Part shown: piece by piece, positions 3,888 through 16,655 of the stretch
How positions within the stretch are numbered: position 1 is the stretch's first letter
How the letters are laid out: every line of letters begins with the position of its first letter
From: a virus
Taxonomy: Duplodnaviria; Heunggongvirae; Uroviricota; Caudoviricetes
Virus record (IMG/VR): IMGVR_UViG_2698536647_000004
Span: 1 to 16,655 of that record
Direction: 5' to 3' (one strand)
DNA length: 16,655 bases
Program-made: the position numbers and the translations under genes
The notes under the pieces: generated by a model
Told to the model about the DNA's origin: nothing
The model's database searches: none
Seen by the model: only the letters and a program-made list of their open reading frames with translations

Positions 3888-5450
3888 ATGAAAATGACAA
3901 GTATTCAACAACGTGCAGAGCTTCATCGTCAAATCTGGCAAATTGCTAACGATGTCAGGGGTTCGGTCGATGGATGGGATTTTAAGCAATACGTTCTGGG
4001 CGCACTTTTCTACCGTTTTATCAGCGAAAATTTTTCCAGCTATATTGAAGCCGGTGATGACAGTATCTGTTATGCGAAACTGGATGACAGCGTAATTACT
4101 GATGACATTAAAGACGATGCCATCAAAACTAAAGGCTACTTCATCTACCCCAGTCAGCTTTTCTGCAACGTAGCGGCGAAAGCAAATACCAATGACAGAC
4201 TGAATGCAGATTTAAACAGCATCTTCGTTGCTATCGAAAGTTCTGCTTACGGTTATCCTTCAGAAGCTGACATCAAAGGTTTGTTTGCTGATTTCGATAC
4301 CACCAGTAACCGCCTGGGTAACACCGTTAAGGATAAAAATGCCCGCCTGGCTGCGGTTCTGAAAGGGGTTGAAGGGTTAAAACTTGGTGACTTCAACGAA
4401 CATCAGATTGACCTGTTCGGTGATGCCTATGAGTTCCTGATCTCTAACTATGCGGCAAATGCCGGTAAGTCAGGCGGCGAGTTCTTTACACCGCAGCACG
4501 TCTCTAAGCTGATTGCACAACTGGCTATGCACGGGCAGACCAACGTTAACAAAATCTACGACCCGGCAGCGGGTTCCGGCTCACTGTTGTTGCAGGCGAA
4601 AAAACAGTTTGATAACCACATCATCGAAGAAGGCTTTTTCGGTCAGGAAATCAACCATACGACCTATAACCTGGCGCGTATGAACATGTTTTTGCACAAT
4701 ATCAACTACGACAAGTTTGATATCAAGCTGGGTAATACACTGACTGAGCCGCACTTCAGAGATGAAAAACCGTTTGATGCCATCGTTTCTAACCCGCCGT
4801 ATTCGGTGAAATGGATTGGCAGCGATGACCCGACGCTGATTAACGATGAACGTTTTGCCCCGGCTGGCGTTCTGGCCCCCAAATCCAAAGCTGACTTTGC
4901 GTTTGTATTACATGCGCTGAACTATCTTTCGGCCAAAGGTCGCGCTGCGATTGTCTGCTTCCCGGGCATTTTTTACCGTGGCGGCGCGGAGCAGAAAATC
5001 CGTCAGTATCTGGTCGATAATAACTATGTCGAAACCGTAATTTCACTGGCTCCGAACCTGTTCTTTGGCACCACCATTGCCGTAAACATTCTGGTTCTGT
5101 CTAAACATAAAACGGATACCAACGTTCAGTTTATTGACGCCAGCGAACTGTTCAAAAAAGAGACTAACAACAATATCCTGACCGATGCCCATATCGAACA
5201 GATTATGCAGGTATTTGCCAGCAAGGAAGATGTTGCTCATCTGGCGAAATCTGTTGCGTTTGAGACTGTTGTCGCGAATGACTATAACCTGTCGGTGAGC
5301 AGCTATGTGGAAGCGAAAGATACTCGCGAAATTATCGATATCGCTGAGCTGAATGCTGAGCTGAAAACCACGGTCAGCAAAATCGACCAGTTGCGCAAAG
5401 ATATTGATGCGATTGTGGCTGAAATTGAAGGCTGCGAGGTGCAGAAATGA
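3888..5450 (+). CDS. hsdM: Type I restriction-modification N6-adenine DNA methyltransferase subunit HsdM (type IC, EcoR124-like)
   Basis: 520 aa with the AdoMet motif [10 protein letters not shown] and the catalytic NPPY motif (SNPPYS). It overlaps hsdS by 4 nt (ATGA). Confidence 0.97.
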
Positions 5451-6652
5451 GCGAGATGAGTTATCTGGAAAAATTGCTGGATGGGGTTGAGGTTGAGTGG
5501 AAGACACTTGGGCAAACTTGCAAAATTGAAACAGGAAAGCTTAATGCGAATGCGGCTGTTGATGATGGAGAGTATATGTTCTTCACGACAGCCAAAGAGA
5601 CAAGCAAAATTGATAAATTCCGCTGGGATACAGAGGCATTGCTGATTGCAGGCAATGCGAATGTTGGTGAGGTGAAGCATTACATCGGCAAGTTTGAGGC
5701 TTATCAGCGCACCTATGTTCTGACAAATTTCGACGAAAATGTAAGTGTTAGATTTTTGTATTTTGTGCTTAGCCATAGCCTGAAGAAATATCTCGAGGAA
5801 AGAACAAATAGCGCGGCAATGACATATATCGTGCTATCAACCTTAGAGAATTTCCCTATCCCCATCCCCTGCCCGGATAATCCGGAAAAATCCCTTGCCA
5901 TCCAGTCTGAAATCGTTCGGATTCTGGATAAATTTACTGCACTTACCGCTGAGCTTACCGCTGAGCTTAACATGCGTAAAAAACAGTACAACTACTATCG
6001 CGACCAGTTGTTGAGTTTTAAAGATGGTGAGGTTGAGTGGAAGACTTTGGGGGAAATTGGAGATTTTACATATGGATATGCAGCCAAAGCCATGGATTCA
6101 GGAGATGCCCGTTTCGTGAGAATTACTGACATAAATAAAGACGGGAAGCTATCGAAAGAAAACCCAATGTACGTTGAATTAAATGAGGAAAATGAGAAAT
6201 ATACCTTAGACAAAAATGATTTACTCATGGCAAGAACTGGGGCAACCTTTGGTAAAACAATGATTTTTGAAGAAGATTATCCAGCAGTATACGCTGGTTT
6301 TTTAATAAAGTTGAACCTAAATAAAACGATTATTAATGCCAAATATTACTGGCACTTTGCACAAAGTGATTTTTTTTGGGAACAGGCTAATAAATTAGTA
6401 TCTGGTGGTGGGCAACCACAGTTTAATGCTAATGCACTGAAACAAGTCAGAGTACCTATTCCATACCCATCTCACCCTCAAAAATCTTTAGACGAACAGG
6501 GGCGTATTGTGGATATTCTGGATAAGTTTGATGCAATCGCAGCTTCCATCACCGAAGGTCTTCCGCGTGAAATCGAGTTGCGCCAGAAACAATACGAATA
6601 CTACCGTGATTTACTGTTCAGTTTCCCGAAACCTGAAACTGCCAGTAATTAA
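5447..6652 (+). CDS. hsdS: Type I restriction-modification specificity subunit HsdS with two target-recognition domains
   Basis: 401 aa. Conserved central repeat region ([26 protein letters not shown]) and the matching C-terminal conserved region ([18 protein letters not shown]). The N-terminal motif VEVEWKTLG is repeated at the start of TRD2 (GEVEWKTLG). Confidence 0.95.
5944..5967 (+). repeat. Perfect 2 x 12-bp tandem repeat (TACCGCTGAGCT) encoding TAEL-TAEL in the HsdS central spacer region
   Basis: Direct read: 5944-5955 equals 5956-5967, preceded by a degenerate copy encoding TAL. In type IC systems the copy number of this repeat sets the spacer length of the recognition site (two copies in EcoR124I, three in EcoR124II, as I recall). 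Confidence 0.85.
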
Positions 6653-6679
6653 TTGATCATTGCTACCGATCGGACCACC

Positions 6680-6745
6680 TTAACACCCGGTCAGTATATA
6701 GACTATTTTTTACGCGCCGGAAGTCACCATTACCCCCCTTCCGGC
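6680..6745 (+). promoter_or_regulatory. Candidate hsdR promoter (TTAACA 6680-6685, TATATA 6695-6700 region) and a leader stem-loop (GCCGGAAG 6716-6723 / CTTCCGGC 6738-6745)
   Basis: Type IC hsdR is known to have its own promoter separate from hsdMS. The hexamers are weak; the 8-bp inverted repeat with a 14-nt loop is read directly from the sequence. Confidence 0.35.
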
Positions 6746-6773
6746 CCTTGCCAGACGGCACAAAGGATGCGCT

Positions 6774-9700
6774 ATGACTCATCAGACACACACCATTGCT
6801 GAATCCAATAACTTTATCGTTCTTGATAAGTACATCAAAGCTGAGCCAACAGGCGACAGCTACCAGAGCGAATCGGACCTGGAACGTGAACTGATTCAGG
6901 ACCTGCAAAATCAGGGTTATGAATTTATTTCCGTAAAATCACAGTCGGCAATGCTGTCCAATGTTCGGGAACAGCTTCAGAGCCTCAATGGTGTGATGTT
7001 TAATGACAGCGAGTGGCGGCGCTTCACGGAGCAGTATCTGGACAACCCCAGCGATGGTATTCTGGATAAAACCCGTAAAATCCATATCGACTATATCTGC
7101 GACTTTATTTTTGATGACGGGCGACTTGAGAACATCTATTTGATAGATAAAAAGAATCTCATGCGCAATAAGGTGCAGATTATCCAGCAGTTTGAACAGA
7201 CGGGTTCTCATGCTAACCGTTATGACGTCACGATCCTGGTTAATGGTTTACCGCTGGTGCAAATCGAACTAAAAAAACGCGGGGTGGCGATTCGTGAGGC
7301 TTTCAACCAGATACATCGTTACAGTAAAGAGAGTTTTAACAGCGAAAATTCCCTGTTTAAGTATCTGCAACTGTTTGTCATTTCTAACGGCACCGATACC
7401 CGTTATTTTGCCAACACGACAAAGCGCGATAAAAACAGTTTTGACTTCACCATGAATTGGGCGAAATCAGACAACACGCTGATTAAAGACCTCAAAGACT
7501 TTACCGCTACCTTTTTCCAGAAACATACTCTGCTGAATGTTCTGGTGAACTACAGCGTTTTTGACAGTAGTCAGACGCTACTGGTGATGCGACCGTACCA
7601 GATTGCCGCCACCGAGCGCATTCTGTGGAAAATTAAGAGTTCCTTTACAGCGAAGAACTGGTCAAAACCGGAAAGCGGTGGGTATATCTGGCACACTACC
7701 GGTTCTGGTAAAACCCTCACCAGCTTTAAAGCCGCGCGTCTGGCAACAGAGCTGGACTTTATTGATAAAGTCTTCTTTGTGGTCGACAGGAAAGACCTCG
7801 ATTACCAGACCATGAAGGAATATCAGCGTTTTTCGCCAGACAGCGTCAACGGCTCGGAAAATACCGCAGGCCTTAAACGAAATCTGGATAAGGACGATAA
7901 CAAAATTATCGTCACTACTATTCAGAAACTCAATAACCTGATGAAAGCAGAAAGCGACCTGCCTGTATATAATCAGCAAGTGGTGTTTATATTTGATGAA
8001 TGCCACCGCAGCCAGTTTGGAGAAGCGCAGAAAAACCTGAAGAAGAAATTCAAACGCTATTATCAGTTTGGTTTTACCGGCACACCTATTTTCCCGGAAA
8101 ACGCCTTAGGCTCAGAAACGACCGCCAGCGTATTTGGTCGTGAATTGCATTCGTATGTAATTACCGATGCGATTCGTGATGAAAAAGTGCTCAAATTCAA
8201 GGTGGACTACAACGATGTGCGGCCACAGTTTAAGTCTTTAGAGACAGAAACTGACGAGAAAAAACTAAGTGCGGCTGAAAATCAGCAGGCGTTTCTTCAT
8301 CCCATGCGTATACAGGAAATTACGCAATATATTCTGAATAACTTCCGCCAGAAGACGCACCGTACTTTCCCTGGCGCAAAAGGTTTTAATGCTATGTTGG
8401 CAGTGAGCAGCGTGGATGCTGCAAAAGCCTATTACGCGGCGTTTAAACGGTTACAAGAGGAAGCCGCTAATAAATCTGCAACTTATAAACCGCTGCGTGT
8501 TGCGACAATCTTCTCCTTTGCCGCTAATGAAGAACAAAATGCCATTGGTGAAATTTCCGATGAAACTTTTGATACCAGCGCAATGGACAGCAGTGCTAAA
8601 GAGTTTCTTGACGCTGCAATTCGTGAGTATAACAGCTATTTTAAAACTAACTTCAGCACCGACGGTAACGGTTTTCAGAACTACTATCGCGATTTAGCCC
8701 AACGGGTTAAAAATCAGGATATCGATCTGTTAATTGTCGTTGGGATGTTTTTAACCGGCTTCGACGCTCCAACATTGAACACGCTATTCGTCGATAAAAA
8801 CTTGCGTTTTCACGGCCTGATGCAGGCATTTTCCCGCACCAACCGCATTTATAACGCCACTAAAACCTTCGGTAACATTGTCACTTTTCGGGATCTGGAA
8901 CGCTCAACCATTGATGCCATAACGCTGTTTGGTGATAAAAATACCAAAAATGTGGTGTTAGAAAAGAGTTATGCAGAGTATATGGAAGGTTTTACTGATG
9001 CTGCCACCGGTGAAGCCAAACGCGGCTTTATGGCAGTAGTTTCAGAACTGGAACAACGGTTCCCTGACCCTGCCAGTATTGAAAGTGAAAAAGAGAAGAA
9101 AGACTTCGTTAAACTGTTTGGCGAATACCTGCGTGCCGAGAACATCCTGCAAAACTATGATGAATTTGCCACGCTAAAAGCCCTGCAACAAATCGATCTT
9201 AGCGATCCTGTTGCGGTAGAAAAATTCAAAGCAGAACATTATGTGGATGATGAAAAGTTCGCTGAATTGCAAACAATTCGTCTCCCTGCTGAACGCAAGA
9301 TTCAGGATTATCGTTCTGCCTATAACGATATTCGCGACTGGCAGCGCCGTGAGAAAGAAGCTGAGAAAAAAGAGAAATCAACCACTGACTGGGATGACGT
9401 GGTTTTTGAGGTCGATTTGCTGAAGTCTCAGGAAATAAACCTGGATTATATCCTTGGACTGATTTTCGAACACAACAGACAAAATAAAGGCAAGGGCGAA
9501 ATGATCGAAGAGGTCAAACGCTTAATTCGTTCAAGCCTGGGGAACCGGGCGAAAGAGGGCCTGATGGTCGATTTTATTCAGCAAACGAACCTGGATGATT
9601 TACCAGACAAAGCCAGTATCATTGAGGCATTCTTTACGTTTGCTCAACGCGAACAGCAACGTGAAGCAGAAGCATTGATAAAAGAAGAAAATCTCAATGA

Positions 9701-9890
9701 AGATGCAGCAAAACGCTATATTCGCACGTCTTTAAAACGCGAATACGCCACCGAAAATGGCACAGAATTAAACGAAACATTACCAAAACTTAGTCCGTTG
9801 AATCCGCAATATAAAACGAAAAAACAGGCAGTTTTCCAGAAAATCGTCTCGTTTATTGAGAAGTTTAAAGGCGTAGGCGGAAAAATATAG
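6774..9890 (+). CDS. hsdR: Type I restriction enzyme R subunit HsdR (type IC; same 1038-aa length I recall for EcoR124I HsdR)
   Basis: PD-(D/E)xK-type nuclease motif in the N-terminal domain ([19 protein letters not shown]), helicase Walker A TGSGKT and a DECH box ([10 protein letters not shown]). RBS AAGGATG before the ATG at 6774. Confidence 0.97.
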
Positions 9891-10138: not shown

Positions 10139-10155
10139 AGATTTATTAGAGCAAT
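10139..10155 (-). promoter_or_regulatory. C1-repressor-operator-like 17-mer ATTGCTCTAATAAATCT (16/17 to the recalled consensus)
   Basis: Read on the minus strand immediately after the stop of the HAD-like gene. The weak promoter-like hexamers TTGATT and GAAAAT follow it. Confidence 0.6.
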
Positions 10156-10661
10156 TATTGTTGATGAAGAAGCGCATTTTCGTACTCTCTGACCATTAAC
10201 GTAAGCACGCCGTGATGCCTGAAAACACGCGCTACTTCAATCTTATCTTCCAGCGCGAACGCAATTTTACTTAGACCAATTTTCTTAAGGAGATCAATCT
10301 TTGCTGGACCATCATTTCTGTCATCGGTGGCAGGACGCATAGATAGCAAAGGCTCAGCCCCATTTGTTACGTGCTTACGCAACCAGGCTCGTGTTTTATC
10401 CCTTGCGATCTCACAGCGCCCGGTTACAAACCAGACCGTGTAAACGTTAAATAACTGGCGCACCATATCAATAACTGGAGTGATGGGAGTATCGGTGTCA
10501 CAGGCGAGATTAAACTCGTTCCAGTCCTTTGTTACTGCACCTTTACCTGGTGGCGGAAGCAAATGCAGTCTGTCTTCAGTTGCCTCTGATATTGTTCCAT
10601 CAATATCGACTATGACGATATACGGACGTTCCTGGTGTGCGTGTTTATTGAAAATACTCAA
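10155..10661 (-). CDS. HAD-superfamily phosphatase-like protein (168 aa)
   Basis: TTG start at 10661 preceded by a strong AGGAGG (4-5 nt spacer) and an in-frame upstream stop. HAD motif I DIDGT (VIVDIDGTIS). Possibly equivalent to a P1 phosphatase gene, but I cannot confirm that from memory. Confidence 0.6.
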   Translation of the reverse strand: MSIFNKHAHQERPYIVIVDIDGTISEATEDRLHLLPPPGKGAVTKDWNEFNLACDTDTPITPVIDMVRQLFNVYTVWFVTGRCEIARDKTRAWLRKHVTNGAEPLLSMRPATDDRNDGPAKIDLLKKIGLSKIAFALEDKIEVARVFRHHGVLTLMVREYENALLHQQ

Positions 10662-11996: not shown

Positions 11997-12215
11997 TCAA
12001 AGTTCCGTATTAGCTTGTGCTTCGGTCATTTTTCCTAAGTATGAAGGAGGAAGGACTACGCAATTTGTATCCAGTCCCTCACCTATGGCAGCCTGTAAAA
12101 TTCTGGCTAAGGTGAGTCTCTTGTTGCGATACCTGGTGATGACATGCCTGATACCGCCGGTCGGCGTAACAAAGGCGATCAGCCAGTAGTGATATTTCCG
12201 TCGGAATGGCCACAT
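11997..12215 (-). CDS. Hypothetical small protein (72 aa if started at the ATG at 12215), stop 1 nt before the ATG of the 420-aa gene
   Basis: The ORF track gives 11997..12272, but that 5' extension overlaps the minus-strand terminator. The ATG at 12215 has AGGGTG upstream. The tight spacing to the next gene suggests coupling. Confidence 0.4.
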   Translation of the reverse strand: MWPFRRKYHYWLIAFVTPTGGIRHVITRYRNKRLTLARILQAAIGEGLDTNCVVLPPSYLGKMTEAQANTEL

Positions 12216-12229
12216 AGTGCACCCTGTAG

Positions 12230-12246
12230 ATTGCTCTAATAAAAAA
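12230..12246 (+). promoter_or_regulatory. C1-repressor-operator-like 17-mer ATTGCTCTAATAAAAAA (14/17), plus orientation
   Basis: Direct read. It forms an inverted pair with the site at 12279-12295. Confidence 0.5.
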
Positions 12247-12267
12247 CGTGATGAGTGTACATCACGT
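12237..12267 (-). terminator. Rho-independent terminator, minus orientation, ending the glycosyltransferase-like operon
   Basis: Stem ACGTGATG (12246-12253) / CATCACGT (12260-12267) with a 6-nt loop. On the minus strand the stem is followed by TTTTTTATT. Confidence 0.7.
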
Positions 12268-12278
12268 TTCAAAAATAT

Positions 12279-12295
12279 GGAATTATTAGAGCAAT
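12279..12295 (-). promoter_or_regulatory. C1-repressor-operator-like 17-mer ATTGCTCTAATAATTCC (14/17), minus orientation
   Basis: Read on the minus strand directly after the stop of the glycosyltransferase-like gene. The following 30 nt closely resemble the sequence after the site at 10139-10155. Confidence 0.55.
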
Positions 12296-12296
12296 A

Positions 12297-12998
12297 TTAT
12301 TCTGATTCTCGCTCAAAAAACGAGCTGATAAGGGGAAGCCAATCCTCTGACACTTCGCGAGGTCGCGGTTTGCCGTGGAAAAAGATTATTCGGCAGTCTT
12401 TTGGTAATGCCCCATTCCCCCTGGAGTAACGCGCGCTCGCATATTTCGAACCAGGTTCCACAACATCGGCCTTGTAACTTACAAACCATCCTGGATACAG
12501 ATCCTGAAATGCTGGTGTATCATCGCCCATAACCTTTCGTAAGAACCCCTGGTCACCCCAGCACTCAGTAGTGACACAACGAGAAATCCAACCTTCCGGA
12601 TCTTGCCAGAATGAACTCCAGATATGCGCTTTAACACTATTTGGTATCCACAGGGCACCGCTGCCACGATATTGTGGATGGTAAAAATCCCTAAGCATGG
12701 TGAAGCTGGTTGGTGGATGCTCTAGGATTGGGCGTATATCACCGGCAATAACCGTGTCCAAATCCAGATAGAACAGATCATCGGTTATATCCGGTCGGAA
12801 CAACTCGATTTTCGCCCACCAGCCACGGCACTTTTGCCACTGGTTGATCAATGGGACAACTTTGACGCCAGGTACATGTAAACGCTTCAGGTCTGTCAGG
12901 CAAATAATTTCATAGCCTTTTGGCAGTTGATTAACCAGCCACTGCACATCGGAAGCGTTATAGTCACCACCAGAGCGAAAAACTAAAGCAATCTTCAT
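12297..12998 (-). CDS. Hypothetical protein (233 aa), possibly a glycosyltransferase (DxD-like LDLD motif)
   Basis: ATG at 12998 overlaps the stop of the upstream phosphatase gene (ATGA). The N-terminus [13 protein letters not shown] and [12 protein letters not shown] suggest a nucleotide-sugar transferase fold, but this is weak. Confidence 0.45.
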
Positions 12999-13687
12999 GC
13001 TGCACCATCACCTTTCACTTTCATCAATGTCAGGTTTCCGCAAAATACGGCACCAGTGTCGATATACTGCTGATTCCAGAATGTCTTCGGGCTTTTCACC
13101 GGAGTGTGACCAAAGATAAAACGATCTGCGCCCGAAATTTCGCCACCAATATCATCCATCGAATCACTGATACGCTCGCGCGCCCAGACAACGTTGAAAA
13201 GCGGCACCTCCTTACCGAATTGGTATTCATTATCCGGATAGTCGGCATGGGCTATAACGATAGTTTCTTGCCCGGTGTTCAACTCAATGATATAGGGCAG
13301 ACGCTTTACCAGCTCCACCAGCGCCCAGGCTAATATTTCCTGATCAGTGTCCAGCATGAAGAACCATTGTCCGCCATTCATTAGCCAGTTATTCACGTTG
13401 CCATCTGGACTTAACGCATCAATCATCAGCCGCTCATGGTTCCCCATCACTGCCCTGAACCAGGGCATCTGCAATAGTTCCAGACATTCGACATTTTCAG
13501 TACCGCGATCGATAAGGTCGCCGACCGATATCAGTAAATCCTGCGCCGGGTCAAAATCCACACGATGGAGTTCGGACATCAGTCTGGTGTAGCAACCATG
13601 CAGATCACCAACAACCCAGACATTCCTGTATTTGGTACCGTCGATACGGTGATAAATTGTGGGTGCCATCATGTATTCTTCAGCCAT
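12995..13687 (-). CDS. Ser/Thr protein phosphatase of the lambda PPase (calcineurin-like metallophosphoesterase) family; likely P1 ppp-like
   Basis: Motifs GDLHGC, GDLIDRG, GNHE and a C-terminal GHTP. Strongly resembles the lambda phosphatase (nin region ORF221) from memory. The true start may be the ATG at 13669, which overlaps the upstream stop by 1 nt. Confidence 0.85.
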
Positions 13688-14295
13688 TCTTTAAGAGTCA
13701 TCTGTGGAATGCCTCCCATTTTCCCGCATGAAACAACGTCAATCTGTTCACGCGCAGACTGGAATAACAAAGGCAGGTGACTTAGATTTTTTGGCGTGCC
13801 GCCGGAGTGAACGCGTGGTTCTTGTGTAGCGTCAACGCCCACCAGGGCGACATGTTTGAATCCGATATGGAAAGCCAGGTTCAGAGCGCCATATGCACTA
13901 TTGCCGCTGGCAATTTCATTCTCATCTTCGCAAAGTCCGAAATGTGCGGACCAACGCCACGCCCACCACTCGGGAGAATTCGTATTTTTTGGCTCCATGC
14001 CACGTTCAGCCACACGACGGAAGCACAGAACGCCGTCTCTGACTTCACGTTCTTTAACATCGGGTAGTGCCATGCAATAACAAACACCACGGCGACGGCG
14101 GCCACGACCAACGCGCCGCATATTGTCTGGCGATGGATCAAGTGTGAAAAAATAAGAAGCGCGGTTCAGCCAGTCGATGGCCCCATTGACCGCTATAATC
14201 GGCACTCCGCGCGGCGCAACAAAGTTTGCGGCGCTTGGGCCACTGCCGACGATAATAACGCGATCACTGCCTCTAAATTTATTCTTGGGAAACAT
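13669..14295 (-). CDS. MptE-like / DUF115-like protein, paralog A (208 aa)
   Basis: Motifs VIIVGSGPS ... IIAVNGAID ... [12 protein letters not shown] ... VALVGVDAT resemble the Rossmann-like core of PF01973 (MptE/Maf family), by recall. It is a paralog of the next gene. Confidence 0.45.
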
Positions 14296-14855
14296 TGAAT
14301 TGCACAGCTCCTACTTGCATTCAAAATATGTAAATCTGCGTGTTTTTTGCGGGTATCCAGGAACTGCTGTTGCCATTTTGAAATAGACACCTGCGTTGGA
14401 TTCCGTAGGGCTTGAGGGTGTGCTCCATGCCAATGAAGGCCGTTTTGCAGAGAACAGTCATAGCCGACTAATACAACTACTTCAGCCCCTGATTCAGCCG
14501 CCAGACTGATAGTCTGCGCGCCGCTATTAACCCCTTCAGCCGGTCCACAATATCGCCTGTACTCCAACGAAAATGATTTCGCCGCCGCCAGGTTGGCTGT
14601 CACTTTGCGGAATCTCCCTCCCGGTATGGTGGATCCGTATTGCTTCCACCATGACAAATCACCGGCGTATAAGGCATAAATGTCATCGAACATCTGCCAG
14701 GAATTGTTAACCGCGATGATTGAACAGCCAGTTTTTTCTATAGCAGCACAGTCCTCACGAGTGAGTGACGGACCGCTACCGACACAAAAAACAGTCCTAG
14801 TCGCCCTGGGTGGTATGTTCATTCTCAGCTGCAAATTCAGCCTCCAGGCGAGCAT
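14193..14855 (-). CDS. MptE-like / DUF115-like protein, paralog B (about 208-220 aa)
   Basis: Motifs VFCVGSGPS ... IIAVNNSWQ ... SGAQTISLAA ... VVLVGYDCS. Start uncertain: ATG 14855, TTG 14834 (GGAGG 6 nt upstream) or ATG 14822. The 3' end overlaps paralog A by 103 nt in another frame. Confidence 0.45.
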   Translation of the reverse strand: MLAWRLNLQLRMNIPPRATRTVFCVGSGPSLTREDCAAIEKTGCSIIAVNNSWQMFDDIYALYAGDLSWWKQYGSTIPGGRFRKVTANLAAAKSFSLEYRRYCGPAEGVNSGAQTISLAAESGAEVVVLVGYDCSLQNGLHWHGAHPQALRNPTQVSISKWQQQFLDTRKKHADLHILNASRSCAIQCFPRINLEAVIALLSSAVAQAPQTLLRRAECRL

Positions 14856-14994
14856 TCATTTCAGCGATTACCGGGTCCACTACAGCATCTGCTTCCTGTT
14901 CATTACGCGGCATGATCGATGCCAGCGATTCATAATTAGCCTTGGATGACACAATTATTCTCCCGATGTTAATGTGCGCTATATCAAAGAGCAC
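14797..14994 (-). CDS. Questionable small ORF (65 aa, or 38 aa from an internal ATG)
   Basis: ORF track only. There is no convincing RBS at either candidate start. Confidence 0.25.
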   Translation of the reverse strand: MLFDIAHINIGRIIVSSKANYESLASIMPRNEQEADAVVDPVIAEMNARLEAEFAAENEHTTQGD

Positions 14995-15018
14995 ATATGC
15001 ACTAATTAATTTATTATT

Positions 15019-15381
15019 TTAAGCAGCATACAACCACTTGTCGCCGTTCAATACATGCTCAATAGCCTCACCCTTTTTAAGGCTTATGTATTCCAGGATG
15101 GCGGTTATCGCTTGTTCTGCACCATACGCAAGAACGACGTAGTAACCTTCCTCTCTAAGCCTGCGCATCCAGGCGATCTGCTCTTTCGTCGGGGCTTTAC
15201 CATTTGGTTCTTTAAGCTCAATTCGCATGCCGTGATAAATACCGCATGCTTTATCGAGACTCATGTCCGGATAACCTTTTTTCTGCCCTTCAGCCTTCAT
15301 TTTCCCGGCGGTTGCTTTTGAACGTTTCCCTCTGAAGTGGTTTACTGAATTTGGCCACCTGAACAGAGGTGATATGCTCAC
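15019..15381 (-). pseudogene. VRR-NUC domain nuclease gene, 5' end replaced by the IS911 terminus (native part 15019..15332)
   Basis: Core KGYPDMSL ... IELKEPNGKAPTKEQIAWMRRLREEGYYVVLAYG fits the VRR-NUC pattern (G.PD ... E.K ... Q). The first 16 codons of the ORF are encoded by IS911 inverted-repeat sequence, and the usual N-terminal portion of the domain is missing. Confidence 0.65.
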
Positions 15382-15667
15382 CTCAGAACAACACAGGTGC
15401 CATAATGAAAAAAAGAAATTTCAGCGCAGAGTTTAAACGCGAATCCGCTCAACTGGTCGTTGACCAGAATTACACCGTGGCAGATGCAGCCAGCGCTATG
15501 GATGTCGGCCTTTCCACAATGACGCGATGGGTGAAACAATTACGTGATGAGCGGCAGGGAAAAACACCAAAAGCCTCCCCCATTACCCCGGAACAAATTG
15601 AAATCCGTGAGCTCAGGAAAAAGCTACAACGTATTGAAATGGAAAATGAAATATTAAAAAAGGCTAC
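15333..15667 (+). mobile_element. IS911 (IS3 family) left-end fragment: left inverted repeat plus a truncated orfA (ATG 15405), interrupted by IS30
   Basis: Begins TGAAGTGG...; orf[89 protein letters not shown] matches IS911 OrfA (InsN) from memory. The frameshift heptamer A AAA AAG is at about 15655-15661, and IS30 sequence starts at 15668. Confidence 0.85.
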
Positions 15668-16655
15668 TGTAGATTCAATCTGTCAATGCAACACCCCTTT
15701 CAATTATCTCTTTCGGTGTTTTGAACTTCAGTGTCTTTCTCGGTCTGTTGTTTAGCTGAGCAGCAACCAGATCTAGTTCATGTTGAGTATATTGGGCAAG
15801 ACATGTCTTTTTAGGAAAGTACTGCCGAATTAGCCCATTTGTATTCTCATTTGTTCCCCGCTGCCAAGGACTCTGAGGATCGCAGAAGTAAACTTTAACG
15901 CCGGTGCTGACAGTAAATTCTAGATGTCTGGCCAGTTCCATTCCTCTGTCCCATGTCAGTGATTTTCTGAGTTCTGACGGTAAACTCAGGAATTTGTCGG
16001 TAAGAGCCTGATTTACTGAGACAGAATCTTTGCCCCTGAGTCTAAGGATGATCGTATAACGTGATTTTCGGTCTACAAGTGTGTCTATATGAGAGTTTTT
16101 TGTACCTGAGACTAAATCGCCCTCCCAATGCCCCAGAGAGCGTCTGTTATCGATATTTCGGGAACGTTCGTGAATTGGTGTTCCGTTCACTATGTTAATC
16201 GTACCTCTTTCGCCTTTGCGGGTATGACGCCTGCCATGGCGAAGGCTATGCGACCGTCGCAGATGCTGTATATTCAGGTGGTGTAGCGCTTCACGGCTAC
16301 GAAAGTACAGCGTTTTATAAATTGTCTCAGGTGATATTCGCAGCGTTTTTTGACGTGGTTTTGTTCGCCTTAACCATCCTGATATTTGCTCTGGAGACCA
16401 TTTCATCTCCAGCTTTTCCAGAACAAGCTTTCGCAATGGTAAATTTTGATCCAGTAAGCACGGTTTTGGCCTTTTCGCCATTCTGTTGGCTCGGTTATTA
16501 GCATCAACAGCTTTGTAATAGCGTCTGCCCCGATTACGCTGAACTTCACGTGAGATCGTCGAAGGACTGCGATTCAGCGCAGTAGCTATCGCACGAATGC
16601 TCATTTTGGCTGACAAACCAGCTCGTATCTCCTCGCGCTCAGACAGTGTCAGGTG
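15668..16655 (-). mobile_element. IS30, partial (right end and most of the transposase; continues beyond the window end)
   Basis: The terminus TGTAGATTCAATCTGTCAATGCAACA begins at 15668. The transposase frame is open from 15675 to the window edge (...[30 protein letters not shown]...) and matches IS30 InsI from memory. Confidence 0.9.
15675..16655 (-). CDS. IS30 transposase, C-terminal approx 326 codons (5' end outside window)
   Basis: Stop TGA at 15677-15675 inside the inverted repeat. A DDE-type catalytic region is present. The ORF track begins at an internal TTG, but the frame stays open to 16655. Confidence 0.9.

Follow-up and report, generated by a model that had tools for sequence, protein, structure and literature searches.

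The present study concerns a stretch of 16,655 nucleotides (IMG/VR record IMGVR_UViG_2698536647_000004, hereafter the window), which belongs to a P1/P7-type phage-plasmid, and the minus-strand operon pmgN-pmgO-pmgP-ppp-pmgQ that it carries. Our analysis indicates that pmgO, pmgP and pmgQ (O-P-Q) form one module within this operon, and that the module is likely to be a set of glycosyltransferases. It is proposed, more tentatively, that the module builds a glycan in the lytic phase, for which it would use donors of the CMP-Kdo type (cytidine monophosphate-activated 3-deoxy-D-manno-oct-2-ulosonic acid) and uridine diphosphate (UDP)-hexose, and that it most likely decorates virion proteins. The operon has already been catalogued in P1; its genes are known, and they are functionally uncharacterised. 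Positions 12000-15332 of the window are 98-99% identical at the DNA level to P1, P7 and many P1-like phage-plasmids, which answers the suggestion in the initial annotation that the same gene set be looked for in P1 and its relatives. According to the P1 and P7 records the minus-strand genes are pmgM, pmgN, pmgO, pmgP, ppp, pmgQ, pmgR, pmgS and pap, and P7 uses the names hdmA, hdmB, hdmC and hdmD for pmgN, pmgO, pmgP and pmgQ respectively. The label 'pmg' stands for 'putative morphogenetic function' and was assigned from map position. As far as the literature was searched, the module-level reading is new. The search returned no paper that gives pmgO, pmgP, ppp or pmgQ a function or describes the module, and the four genes are not mentioned in the 2022 paper on the P1 virion proteome.

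pmgO (14193..14855, minus strand, alternative start 14822) and pmgP (13669..14295, minus strand) were delimited from open reading frames and the P1/P7 annotation, and encode proteins of 220 and 208 amino acids. The two had been taken as paralogous MptE-like proteins in the initial annotation. This relationship is hardly visible by plain BLASTP, which finds a 36-residue N-terminal match alone (E 0.003). However, profile-profile comparison of 33- and 34-member alignments gave 98.2% probability and E 6e-14 over 163 columns, and by this measure PmgO and PmgP are genuine paralogs. The GSGPS, IIAVN, NSG..A and LVG.D motifs that had been pointed out in both proteins are invariant or nearly so in the two families. 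Assignment to the MptE/Maf family (PF01973, MptE-like, DUF115) proved right at the level of the fold, but the P1 proteins do not reach it on their own Pfam scores, as PmgO (22.1 bits) and PmgP (20.9 bits) both remain below the gathering threshold of 34.6. Two relatives in the family, P0051 (44.6 bits) and P0260 (44.1 bits), exceed that threshold, so the P1 proteins may be regarded as divergent members by transitivity. PmgO falls into PHROG 4603 ('alpha-2,3-sialyltransferase') and PmgP into PHROG 2111, with a weak cross-match. The same sialyltransferase label has been given to proteins of hosts without sialic acid synthesis, and a misspelling, 'norphogenetic protein', has spread database-wide on PmgO and PmgP homologs.

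Single-sequence searches of the PDB found nothing useful. AlphaFold models of PmgO and PmgP are confident (pLDDT 86 and 95) and have a Rossmann-like fold, with a GxGPS nucleotide loop at the N-terminus, which can be superposed on 5mu5, 8sd5 and 2p56 and thus places both proteins in the Maf/MptE/GT42 group. The best structural match was the Maf glycosyltransferase, with 160-162 residues aligned as compared to 127-137 for the pyrophosphokinase type. At the sequence level the joint profile of the two families matched the lipooligosaccharide (LOS) sialyltransferases Cst-II (E 7.6e-4, spread over two short segments) and Cst-I (E 0.023), while MptE was reached at E 1.8. Both families share GxGPS, an Asn after strand 2 and a conserved set of acid, Asn-Ser and acid, namely D66, N110-S111 and D133 in PmgO and D53, N132-S133 and D155 in PmgP. 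In Maf the catalytic acids are E324 and D415 (M. magneticum enzyme), together with a conserved Ser. The Ser-to-Asp spacing is 22 residues in PmgO and PmgP and 23 between the mutagenesis-defined essential residues of Maf, a comparison of sequence spacing only.

These results bear on another view, in which PmgO and PmgP are ATP-dependent pyrophosphokinases of the MptE or thiamine pyrophosphokinase type, and the product is a small molecule or modified nucleotide instead of a glycan. The name of the Pfam family speaks for it. Nevertheless the structural comparison favours Maf and the sequence profiles favour sugar transferases that use CMP-activated donors. In addition, the two genes are obligately linked, and in places fused, to a DxD glycosyltransferase, sugar-type methyltransferases and glycosyltransferases are frequent in the neighbourhood, and genes of pterin or thiamine pathways were not recognised among the neighbours identified. 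Taken together, this makes a pyrophosphokinase function quite improbable.

The third member of the module, pmgQ (12297..12998, minus strand; open reading frame and P1/P7 annotation), encodes a protein of 233 amino acids that belongs to PHROG 1962 ('glycosyltransferase', 2.5e-128). It had been described at first as a putative DxD-containing glycosyltransferase, and this can now be narrowed to a GT8-like enzyme. The DxD motif is LDLDT (residues 78-82), in which D79, L80, D81 and T82 are invariant in the family; the other invariant residues are W60, W61, K63, G148, D149, S174, K176, H208, G209, P211 and P213. Compared with solved structures, the family profile matched Skp1 alpha-galactosyltransferase (6mw5, E 1.9e-6), GlyE (5gvv, E 4e-3) and glycogenin-2 (E 0.49). 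An hhalign comparison with E. coli WaaJ gave E 3.9e-4, aligned over the DxD and the C-terminal motifs. Together with the motif, these similarities to GT8 members argue for a place in that group. PmgQ matched no Pfam model and forms a small family of its own, of which 41 clusters were found. In Salmonella its homologs carry the label 'phosphohydrolase'.

That the three genes work together is indicated by their distribution. Genomes scanned at the species level with the profile of PmgP gave 17 loci, in which PmgO and PmgQ were counted where the flank was sufficient. PmgQ was found beside PmgP in all 14 loci with enough flank and PmgO in 14 of 16. Among the organisms are Zhongshania, Methylophilaceae, Microbulbifer, Brevundimonas, Sinomicrobium (Bacteroidota) and Desulfuromonadaceae, so that the host range extends over Alpha-, Beta- and Gammaproteobacteria, Desulfuromonadaceae and Bacteroidota. 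A first scan of viral contigs returned 80 near-identical copies of P1, and a second, made with an alignment of distant family members, returned 80 diverse contigs. Of these, 73 contain Q and 63 contain O; the genes share one strand in every case, and most contigs show the order O-P-Q or O-Q-P. The trio also occurs in isolated phages, among them the lambda-like Citrobacter phage phiNP, IME392 (a lytic myovirus of E. coli) and the jumbo phage XacN1, whose homologs are ORF375, ORF374 and ORF373. When 1.84 billion representative proteins were searched exhaustively by profile, 592 relatives (cluster representatives) were obtained at E <= 1e-3. Among them, natural fusions were observed between O and P (P0051), P and Q (P0221 and P0291), Q and P (P0312), Q, P and a methyltransferase (P0271), and a methyltransferase and P (P0301). 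The O-P fusion adjoins a PmgQ gene in a podovirus-like contig. Because of this co-occurrence on one strand and the Rosetta-stone fusions, O-P-Q can be considered as one functional unit.

PmgO and PmgP are tied to each other in a further way. The two genes share a dual-coding overlap of 103 nucleotides (14193..14295, minus strand), in which the 3' end of pmgO, read in the -1 frame, encodes the PmgP N-terminus with its GSGPS motif. The pmgP ATG falls on the Cys codon (xxA-TGY) of 'CFPR', a C-terminal motif of PmgO, and the same arrangement on a 'CF(P)R' motif, with overlaps of 37-133 nucleotides, was found in seven divergent loci, the window and L004, L090, L091, L098, L100 and L106. Conservation of this start over such divergence points to a tight translational coupling of the pair. 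A programmed -1 frameshift that would give an O-P fusion in P1 was also considered, since the overlap contains the canonical slippery heptamer A_AAT_TTA. It was rejected as a conserved feature, as slippery sites are missing in three of the seven homologous overlaps.

The remaining genes of the cluster do not follow the trio. In the genome-locus scan Ppp, PmgN, PmgM, PmgR, PmgS and Pap stood beside O, P and Q in P1-like loci only, and judged by this linkage Ppp, PmgN and PmgM are not part of the module. The initial annotation had grouped five genes, the phosphatase and the VRR-NUC nuclease among them, in one operon, and a single functional unit of the five is not borne out. It could still be argued that all these genes work as one system. 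The genes are tightly packed in P1, and Ppp occupies the slot between P and Q that is held elsewhere by methyltransferases or glycosyltransferases, so it could be a tailoring enzyme, for example a sugar-phosphate phosphatase. This is improbable given the restricted distribution of the companions. Moreover, pmgM lies in its own upstream unit, separated from pmgN by an operator and a promoter, and is truncated here, and lambda has a Ppp homolog (P1 record) and is not known to carry O, P and Q.

What occupies the slot between P and Q elsewhere is informative about the kind of product. P1 has Ppp there, the Zhongshania and Brevundimonas prophages have a class I methyltransferase, and IME392 has a GT4-like protein. 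The latter matches Pfam Glycos_transf_1, and Serratia and Buttiauxella carry homologs of it close to the trio (39% identity, E 6e-62), which makes three contexts in all. A domain of the TylF type (macrocin sugar O-methyltransferase family) is fused to Q in XacN1, and an FkbM methyltransferase follows the trio in a Sinomicrobium phage. Altogether a methyltransferase (class I, FkbM or TylF) was found inside or beside the block in 36 of the 80 viral contigs. A further recurrent family in these contigs, u278, is weakly GT8-like. Since Maf-like, GT8-like and GT4-like proteins are linked or fused with sugar-type methyltransferases, the module would be suited to the assembly of a short glycan that is methylated where a methyltransferase is present. 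Such linkage and fusion are hard to reconcile with a pyrophosphokinase pathway.

Another family, u295, of about 290 amino acids recurs by the module in 18 viral contigs (within L111-L188, e.g. L119:5229-6065 and L157:8145-9005). Its invariant motifs are G-Q-x-P-x-D...V-Q and F-R-P-H-P, and its profile matched no solved structure. The Q-x-x-x-D and H-P motifs may resemble those of beta-Kdo transferases (GT99/GT107), a likeness that serves as a lead only. The 213-amino-acid neighbour in phiNP (PHROG 1924) and the 280-amino-acid neighbour in Hafnia (PHROG 6804) were considered as kin of PmgQ or of the GT4-like protein, and no relation was found.

The module has no genes for the synthesis of sugar nucleotides, and the hosts of the named sources are all Gram-negative. 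In E. coli, Maf enzymes have been shown to use CMP-Kdo for the transfer of Kdo (bioRxiv 2020.06.03.131540). CMP-Kdo is thus the proposed donor for PmgO and PmgP, because the module presumably operates in E. coli K-12 and CMP-Kdo is the CMP-ulosonic donor universal to Gram-negative hosts. A likeness to WaaZ, the Kdo-III transferase, is faint and not significant (TIGR04437 at E 2.9e-4, hhalign at E 2-3e-3 and a faint PF27901 signal), and hhalign probabilities to E. coli WaaZ, WaaJ and WaaO are weak (5-35%).

Genomic position gives an indication as to the acceptor. The typical order in phages other than P1 is TerL, portal, protease, major capsid protein (MCP), the module, adaptor Ad1 and head-closure protein Hc1. 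In the Zhongshania prophage TerL, portal, S78 protease and HK97 capsid genes are followed by O, P, a methyltransferase and Q and then by Ad1 and Hc1. In a Desulfuromonadaceae phage (L104) the trio is interleaved with connector genes in the order MCP, O, Ad1, an unidentified gene, P, Q and Neck1. A head, neck or packaging gene was recognised in 48 of the 80 viral contigs and lay two genes or fewer from the block in 36 of them; these counts are lower bounds, as the genes were recognised by BLAST to a few seeds. phiNP and a Hafnia prophage have these genes between lysis cassette and terminase, and in P1 the operon is situated between the baseplate and tail genes and pmgR/pmgS. For XacN1, two or more virion glycoproteins have been reported (PMC5852040). 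Because of the head-gene context and these glycoproteins, virion proteins that are modified in the cytoplasm during assembly are favoured as the acceptor, though we would put this at somewhat less than an even chance.

Several points weigh against a virion acceptor. No word beginning 'glyc' occurs in two cryo-electron microscopy studies of P1, one of the head and portal and the other of the tail and baseplate, and a text search of the 2022 virion proteome paper for such words was likewise negative. P1, the lambda-like phiNP and the HK97-like phages have no obvious virion protein in common. The P1 operon lies outside the head module, and it is controlled by C1 and not driven by an annotated late promoter. 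The closest sequence relatives of the proteins (GT42, GT8 and, faintly, WaaZ) are enzymes of lipopolysaccharide (LPS) or LOS and not protein glycosyltransferases. P1 uses LPS core glucose as its receptor. The receptor of phiNP is likewise a glucose of the LPS outer core, GlcII (PMC6456863), and this agreement may be a coincidence or a hint of an LPS-directed function. Finally, the chromosomes of Pseudescherichia and Serratia place the trio with adhesin genes and not with phage structural genes.

Some of these points lead to a different acceptor. The module could be remodelling the LPS or LOS core of the host, or another envelope glycolipid, at the cytoplasmic face of the inner membrane. By capping the outer-core glucose to which P1 and phiNP bind, it could bring about superinfection exclusion or keep the progeny from sticking to debris. 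Besides the common receptor, this is in line with the GT42 LOS sialyltransferases being the best sequence matches of the joint PmgO and PmgP profile, with the alignment of PmgQ to WaaJ, a GT8 enzyme, with the WaaZ signals and with LPS being present in all named hosts. The GT4-like accessory protein also falls in the Pfam family to which the core glycosyltransferases WaaG and WaaB belong. On the other hand, hhalign gives only low probabilities (11-35%) for WaaZ and WaaJ, and the module is found in strictly lytic and jumbo phages as well. Its expression is lytic or late, as it is repressed by C1 in P1, lies downstream of the lysis genes in phiNP and stands among capsid and connector genes in most contigs. 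By that time LPS already present in the outer membrane could no longer be replaced, and such timing is the opposite of what is seen for lysogenic-conversion genes. Remodelling of LPS is thus regarded as unlikely, and so is the masking of the receptor that it would bring about.

The chromosomal islands raise the question of other proteins as acceptors. In five Pseudescherichia genomes (L092-L096) PmgO lies directly downstream of an inverse autotransporter of 1178 amino acids with an IAT_beta domain and seven Big_1 repeats. Nearby are P, Q and a further three proteins with Big_1, and no phage genes were seen. A similar chromosomal island with PmgO, PmgP and PmgQ homologs, an inverse autotransporter and other Big_1 proteins exists in Serratia plymuthica (L003). 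One of the other Big_1 proteins of these islands has RCC1 repeats as well. This gene neighbourhood suggests glycosylation of adhesins there. It could be possible that the module O-glycosylates proteins outside the virion in general, either host proteins in the course of takeover or, in the chromosomal copies, surface adhesins before export. Maf and the best structural relatives of PmgQ in GT8 (Skp1 alpha-galactosyltransferase, GlyE and glycogenin) do act on proteins or protein-linked glycans. However, no data suggest a host target, and most occurrences of the module are inside phage structural modules. Big_1 domains were tried as a common acceptor and discarded, since tblastn of a Big_1 repeat against 50,697 phage genomes found nothing, so an adhesin acceptor does not carry over to the phages. 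Non-virion proteins are for these reasons a rather improbable target of the module as a whole.

The idea of a modification module, with nucleic acid or protein as the substrate, had been put forward at the outset; it holds for O, P and Q, but a nucleic-acid target found no support. Glycosylation of phage DNA or RNA would be a form of anti-restriction hypermodification. Phage DNA glycosyltransferases do exist, and the trio lies near genes for DNA polymerase, ribonucleotide reductase or ligase in the Sinomicrobium phage, XacN1 and IME392. Among the neighbours identified in those contigs there is no hydroxymethylase, TET-type or other base-activating enzyme. The methyltransferases are of small-molecule or sugar types (Methyltransf_23/24/25, FkbM, TylF) and not DNA methyltransferases, and the dominant context is that of head and neck genes. 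It also counts against this option that P1 DNA is a classical restriction substrate and that methylation is its sole known modification. Modification of nucleic acid by O-P-Q is therefore extremely doubtful.

From the fold, the paralogy, the co-occurrence, the fusions and the genomic context that were observed, we infer the donors, the pairing and the acceptor as follows. The single-domain PmgO and PmgP, coupled by the conserved -1 overlap, probably act as a pair and would transfer a CMP-activated ulosonic acid, for which CMP-Kdo is the sole such donor in E. coli K-12. PmgQ would be a DxD- and metal-dependent, probably retaining hexosyltransferase that uses UDP-hexose. In other phages the trio is extended by sugar-type O-methyltransferases and further glycosyltransferases, so the product is probably a short glycan that bears methyl groups where such a methyltransferase is encoded. 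Modification probably takes place in the cytoplasm, because the three proteins are small and the module has no export machinery. A virion protein would be the most likely acceptor, by analogy with the virion glycosylation of mycobacteriophages, since the module usually lies between the major capsid and the head-tail adaptor genes; the LPS core would come next and other proteins after it. In P1 the operon is held off by the C1 repressor through Op83, as annotated, and is dispensable for plaques. A bolder version, which we hold to be unlikely, is that O-P-Q represents the founding tractable example of a widespread virion glycosylation in Gram-negative phages, in which a heteromeric pair of minimal Maf/GT42-like enzymes adds Kdo from CMP-Kdo, and the GT8-like enzyme a hexose, to capsid or neck proteins. 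If true, it would be the first natural O-glycosylation of protein with a Kdo-type sugar and the first virion glycosylation pathway for a classical coliphage.

Recognition of the module has consequences beyond the window. It corrects the propagated labels 'norphogenetic protein', 'alpha-2,3-sialyltransferase' and 'phosphohydrolase'. P1 is a workhorse phage whose pmg genes have been functionless so far, and the present reading gives three orphan genes a testable biochemical role. Knockouts and CRISPR interference (CRISPRi) tools exist for P1, so the predictions can be tested directly. The small O-P-Q family also serves as a marker for head modules in many phages that have not been cultivated. 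Should the virion be the acceptor, glycosylation of phage particles would extend from actinobacteriophages to Gram-negative phages, with relevance to the immune recognition and stability of therapeutic phages and of P1-based delivery vectors. If it is LPS, a new kind of lytic-phase receptor masking would be at hand.

In the P1 annotation a C1 operator (Op83) and a promoter separate pmgM from pmgN, so pmgN-pmgO-pmgP-ppp-pmgQ is assigned to one transcription unit and pmgM to an upstream pmgL-pmgM unit. The operator, Op83/Oppp (TATGCACTAATTAATTT; 14996..15012, plus strand), was carried over from the P1/P7 annotation by coordinates. Its sequence is kept in the window, P1 and P7, and it is annotated in the latter two as the controller of the pmgN-Q operon. 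It has four mismatches to the operator consensus and was for that reason missed by the scan, which allowed three. That scan gave three matches in the window as compared to 0.09 expected. Two of them, at 12230-12246 (plus strand) and 12279-12295 (minus strand), form a pair with the pmgR promoter, correspond to OpmgRa and OpmgRb of P1 and bound the downstream end of the pmgN-Q operon (12230..12295) at the start of the pmgR unit. A consensus scan predicted a sigma-70-like promoter, GCGACA-17-TAAAAT (15016..15044, minus strand), inside the 3' end of pmgM, a few bases from PpmgN as annotated in P1. Gene order, operator and promoter thus agree with the P1/P7 annotation and are consistent with a single C1-controlled operon. 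Deletion and CRISPRi have both shown pmgO, pmgP, ppp and pmgQ to be dispensable for plaque formation (PMC10695390).

The tight coupling that had been read from the sequence holds at two junctions, ppp/pmgQ with an ATGA overlap and pmgP/ppp with an ATGA/TGATG arrangement (ATGATG in the sequence), but pmgO and pmgP are joined by the long out-of-frame overlap described above and not by a four-nucleotide junction. Similarly, the four large minus-strand open reading frames are as first listed, but pmgN had been overlooked and the VRR-NUC gene is incomplete. pmgN (P7 hdmA; 14797..14994, minus strand) is the first gene of the operon, an open reading frame of 65 amino acids assigned from the P1/P7 annotation and PHROG 2350 (2.2e-45); the P1 annotation starts it at window position 14952, which gives 51 amino acids. 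It was seen in P1-like loci only. Reports on pmgN conflict, as its CRISPRi knock-down marks it as essential (efficiency of plating 1.4e-2) and a deletion survey as nonessential (PMC10695390). Knock-down of pmgO-pmgQ, which lie downstream, was without effect (PMC10695390), so simple polarity does not explain the CRISPRi result.

The product of ppp (12995..13687, minus strand) is a Ser/Thr metallophosphatase of 230 amino acids of the lambda/NinI type, as the initial annotation had it (Pfam Metallophos 9e-16; NinI-like PHROG 246, 5e-113). Its Metallophos score of 59.3 bits against a cut-off of 21.5 places it in the PPP family, and it is 64% identical to the lambda phosphatase (P1 record). NCBIfam PRK11439, one of the PrpA/PrpB equivalog models, gave 272 bits, under its cut-off of 326. 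The gene sits in the variable slot between pmgP and pmgQ and was found there in P1-like elements only. A second phosphatase, pap (168 amino acids; region 10139-10661), lies within 3.5 kb of it and belongs to the HAD phosphatases, in the type of the polynucleotide kinase (PNKP) phosphatase domain (Pfam HAD_PNKP 5e-12). Just downstream of the pap 3' end a C1 operator with one mismatch to the consensus was observed (10139-10155). It is annotated in P1 as the operator of pmgT, a gene that is missing from the window.

The gene that had been counted as a VRR-NUC member of the operon is a truncated remnant of pmgM from the separate upstream transcription unit. The remnant (VRR-NUC/PD-(D/E)xK; 15019..15332, minus strand, within an open reading frame at 15019-15381) is 100% identical to residues 90-192 of the 192 residues of P1 PmgM, and the 5' half is gone. 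The D...E-L-K motif is visible by eye and PHROG 5702 ('Holliday junction resolvase') matches at 1.9e-27; the score to Pfam VRR_NUC, 22.9 bits, remains under the cut-off of 23.8, and the 15019-15381 frame does not represent an intact gene with a complete domain. Homology to P1 stops at 15332 and insertion sequence (IS) DNA starts beyond, so that pmgM is cut at 15333. The truncation is by nested IS elements (15333-16655), an IS3-family orfA at 15369-15755 (plus strand), which we take to be IS911-like, followed or interrupted by an IS30 transposase frame at 15675-16616 (minus strand). The eight E. coli plasmids (120-200 kb) that matched best among the matches listed have the pmgM/IS junction too, with an identity of 99.7-100%. 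At the other end of the window, only 36% of positions 1-10150 matches P1 itself. A type I restriction-modification cargo, hsdM-hsdS-hsdR (3888-9890; three plus-strand open reading frames of 520, 401 and 1038 amino acids), takes the place of the canonical P1 pmgT-upf region, as in phages vB_EcoM-673R5 and phi456.

The module can be compared with several known systems. The Maf flagellin O-glycosyltransferases for nonulosonic acid (PF01973; 5mu5) are at least 600 amino acids long, with N- and C-terminal domains around the core, whereas PmgO and PmgP are bare cores of about 200 residues, each a single domain, with 16-18% sequence identity to Maf. Genes for Maf adjoin those for flagellin and nonulosonic acid synthesis. 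PmgO and PmgP differ in being a phage-borne paralogous pair with a GT8-like partner, and no flagellin or nonulosonic acid genes were recognised among the neighbours identified. The LOS sialyltransferases Cst-I and Cst-II of Campylobacter (GT42) are nearest to the joint profile at the sequence level. The catalytic residues of Cst-II are His188, Tyr156 and Tyr162, for which no equivalents were established in PmgO and PmgP. The GT42 donor is CMP-sialic acid, which E. coli K-12 does not make, so the label 'sialyltransferase' is probably wrong with respect to the donor. MptE, the archaeal 6-hydroxymethyl-7,8-dihydropterin pyrophosphokinase (8sd5), and the thiamine pyrophosphokinases are weak sequence matches, and the identified neighbours of PmgO and PmgP are glycosyltransferases, methyltransferases and virion genes in place of a pterin or thiamine context. 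PmgQ aligns with GT8 enzymes (6mw5, 5gvv, glycogenin and the LPS enzymes WaaJ and WaaO) at the DxD and at a C-terminal 'HG.P.P'/'G..KPW' segment; with roughly 230 residues it is smaller than most GT8 enzymes. Our literature search found no virion glycosylation system of the O-P-Q kind in a Gram-negative phage, and no Maf/GT42-like pair is known from those of mycobacteriophages or chloroviruses. It is nevertheless these two systems that O-P-Q may be likened to, as in both of them virus-encoded cytoplasmic glycosyltransferases modify proteins of the capsid or tail and are not needed for plaque formation. They make use of other glycosyltransferase families and belong to Gram-positive-type hosts or eukaryotic algae, whereas the hosts of O-P-Q are Gram-negative.

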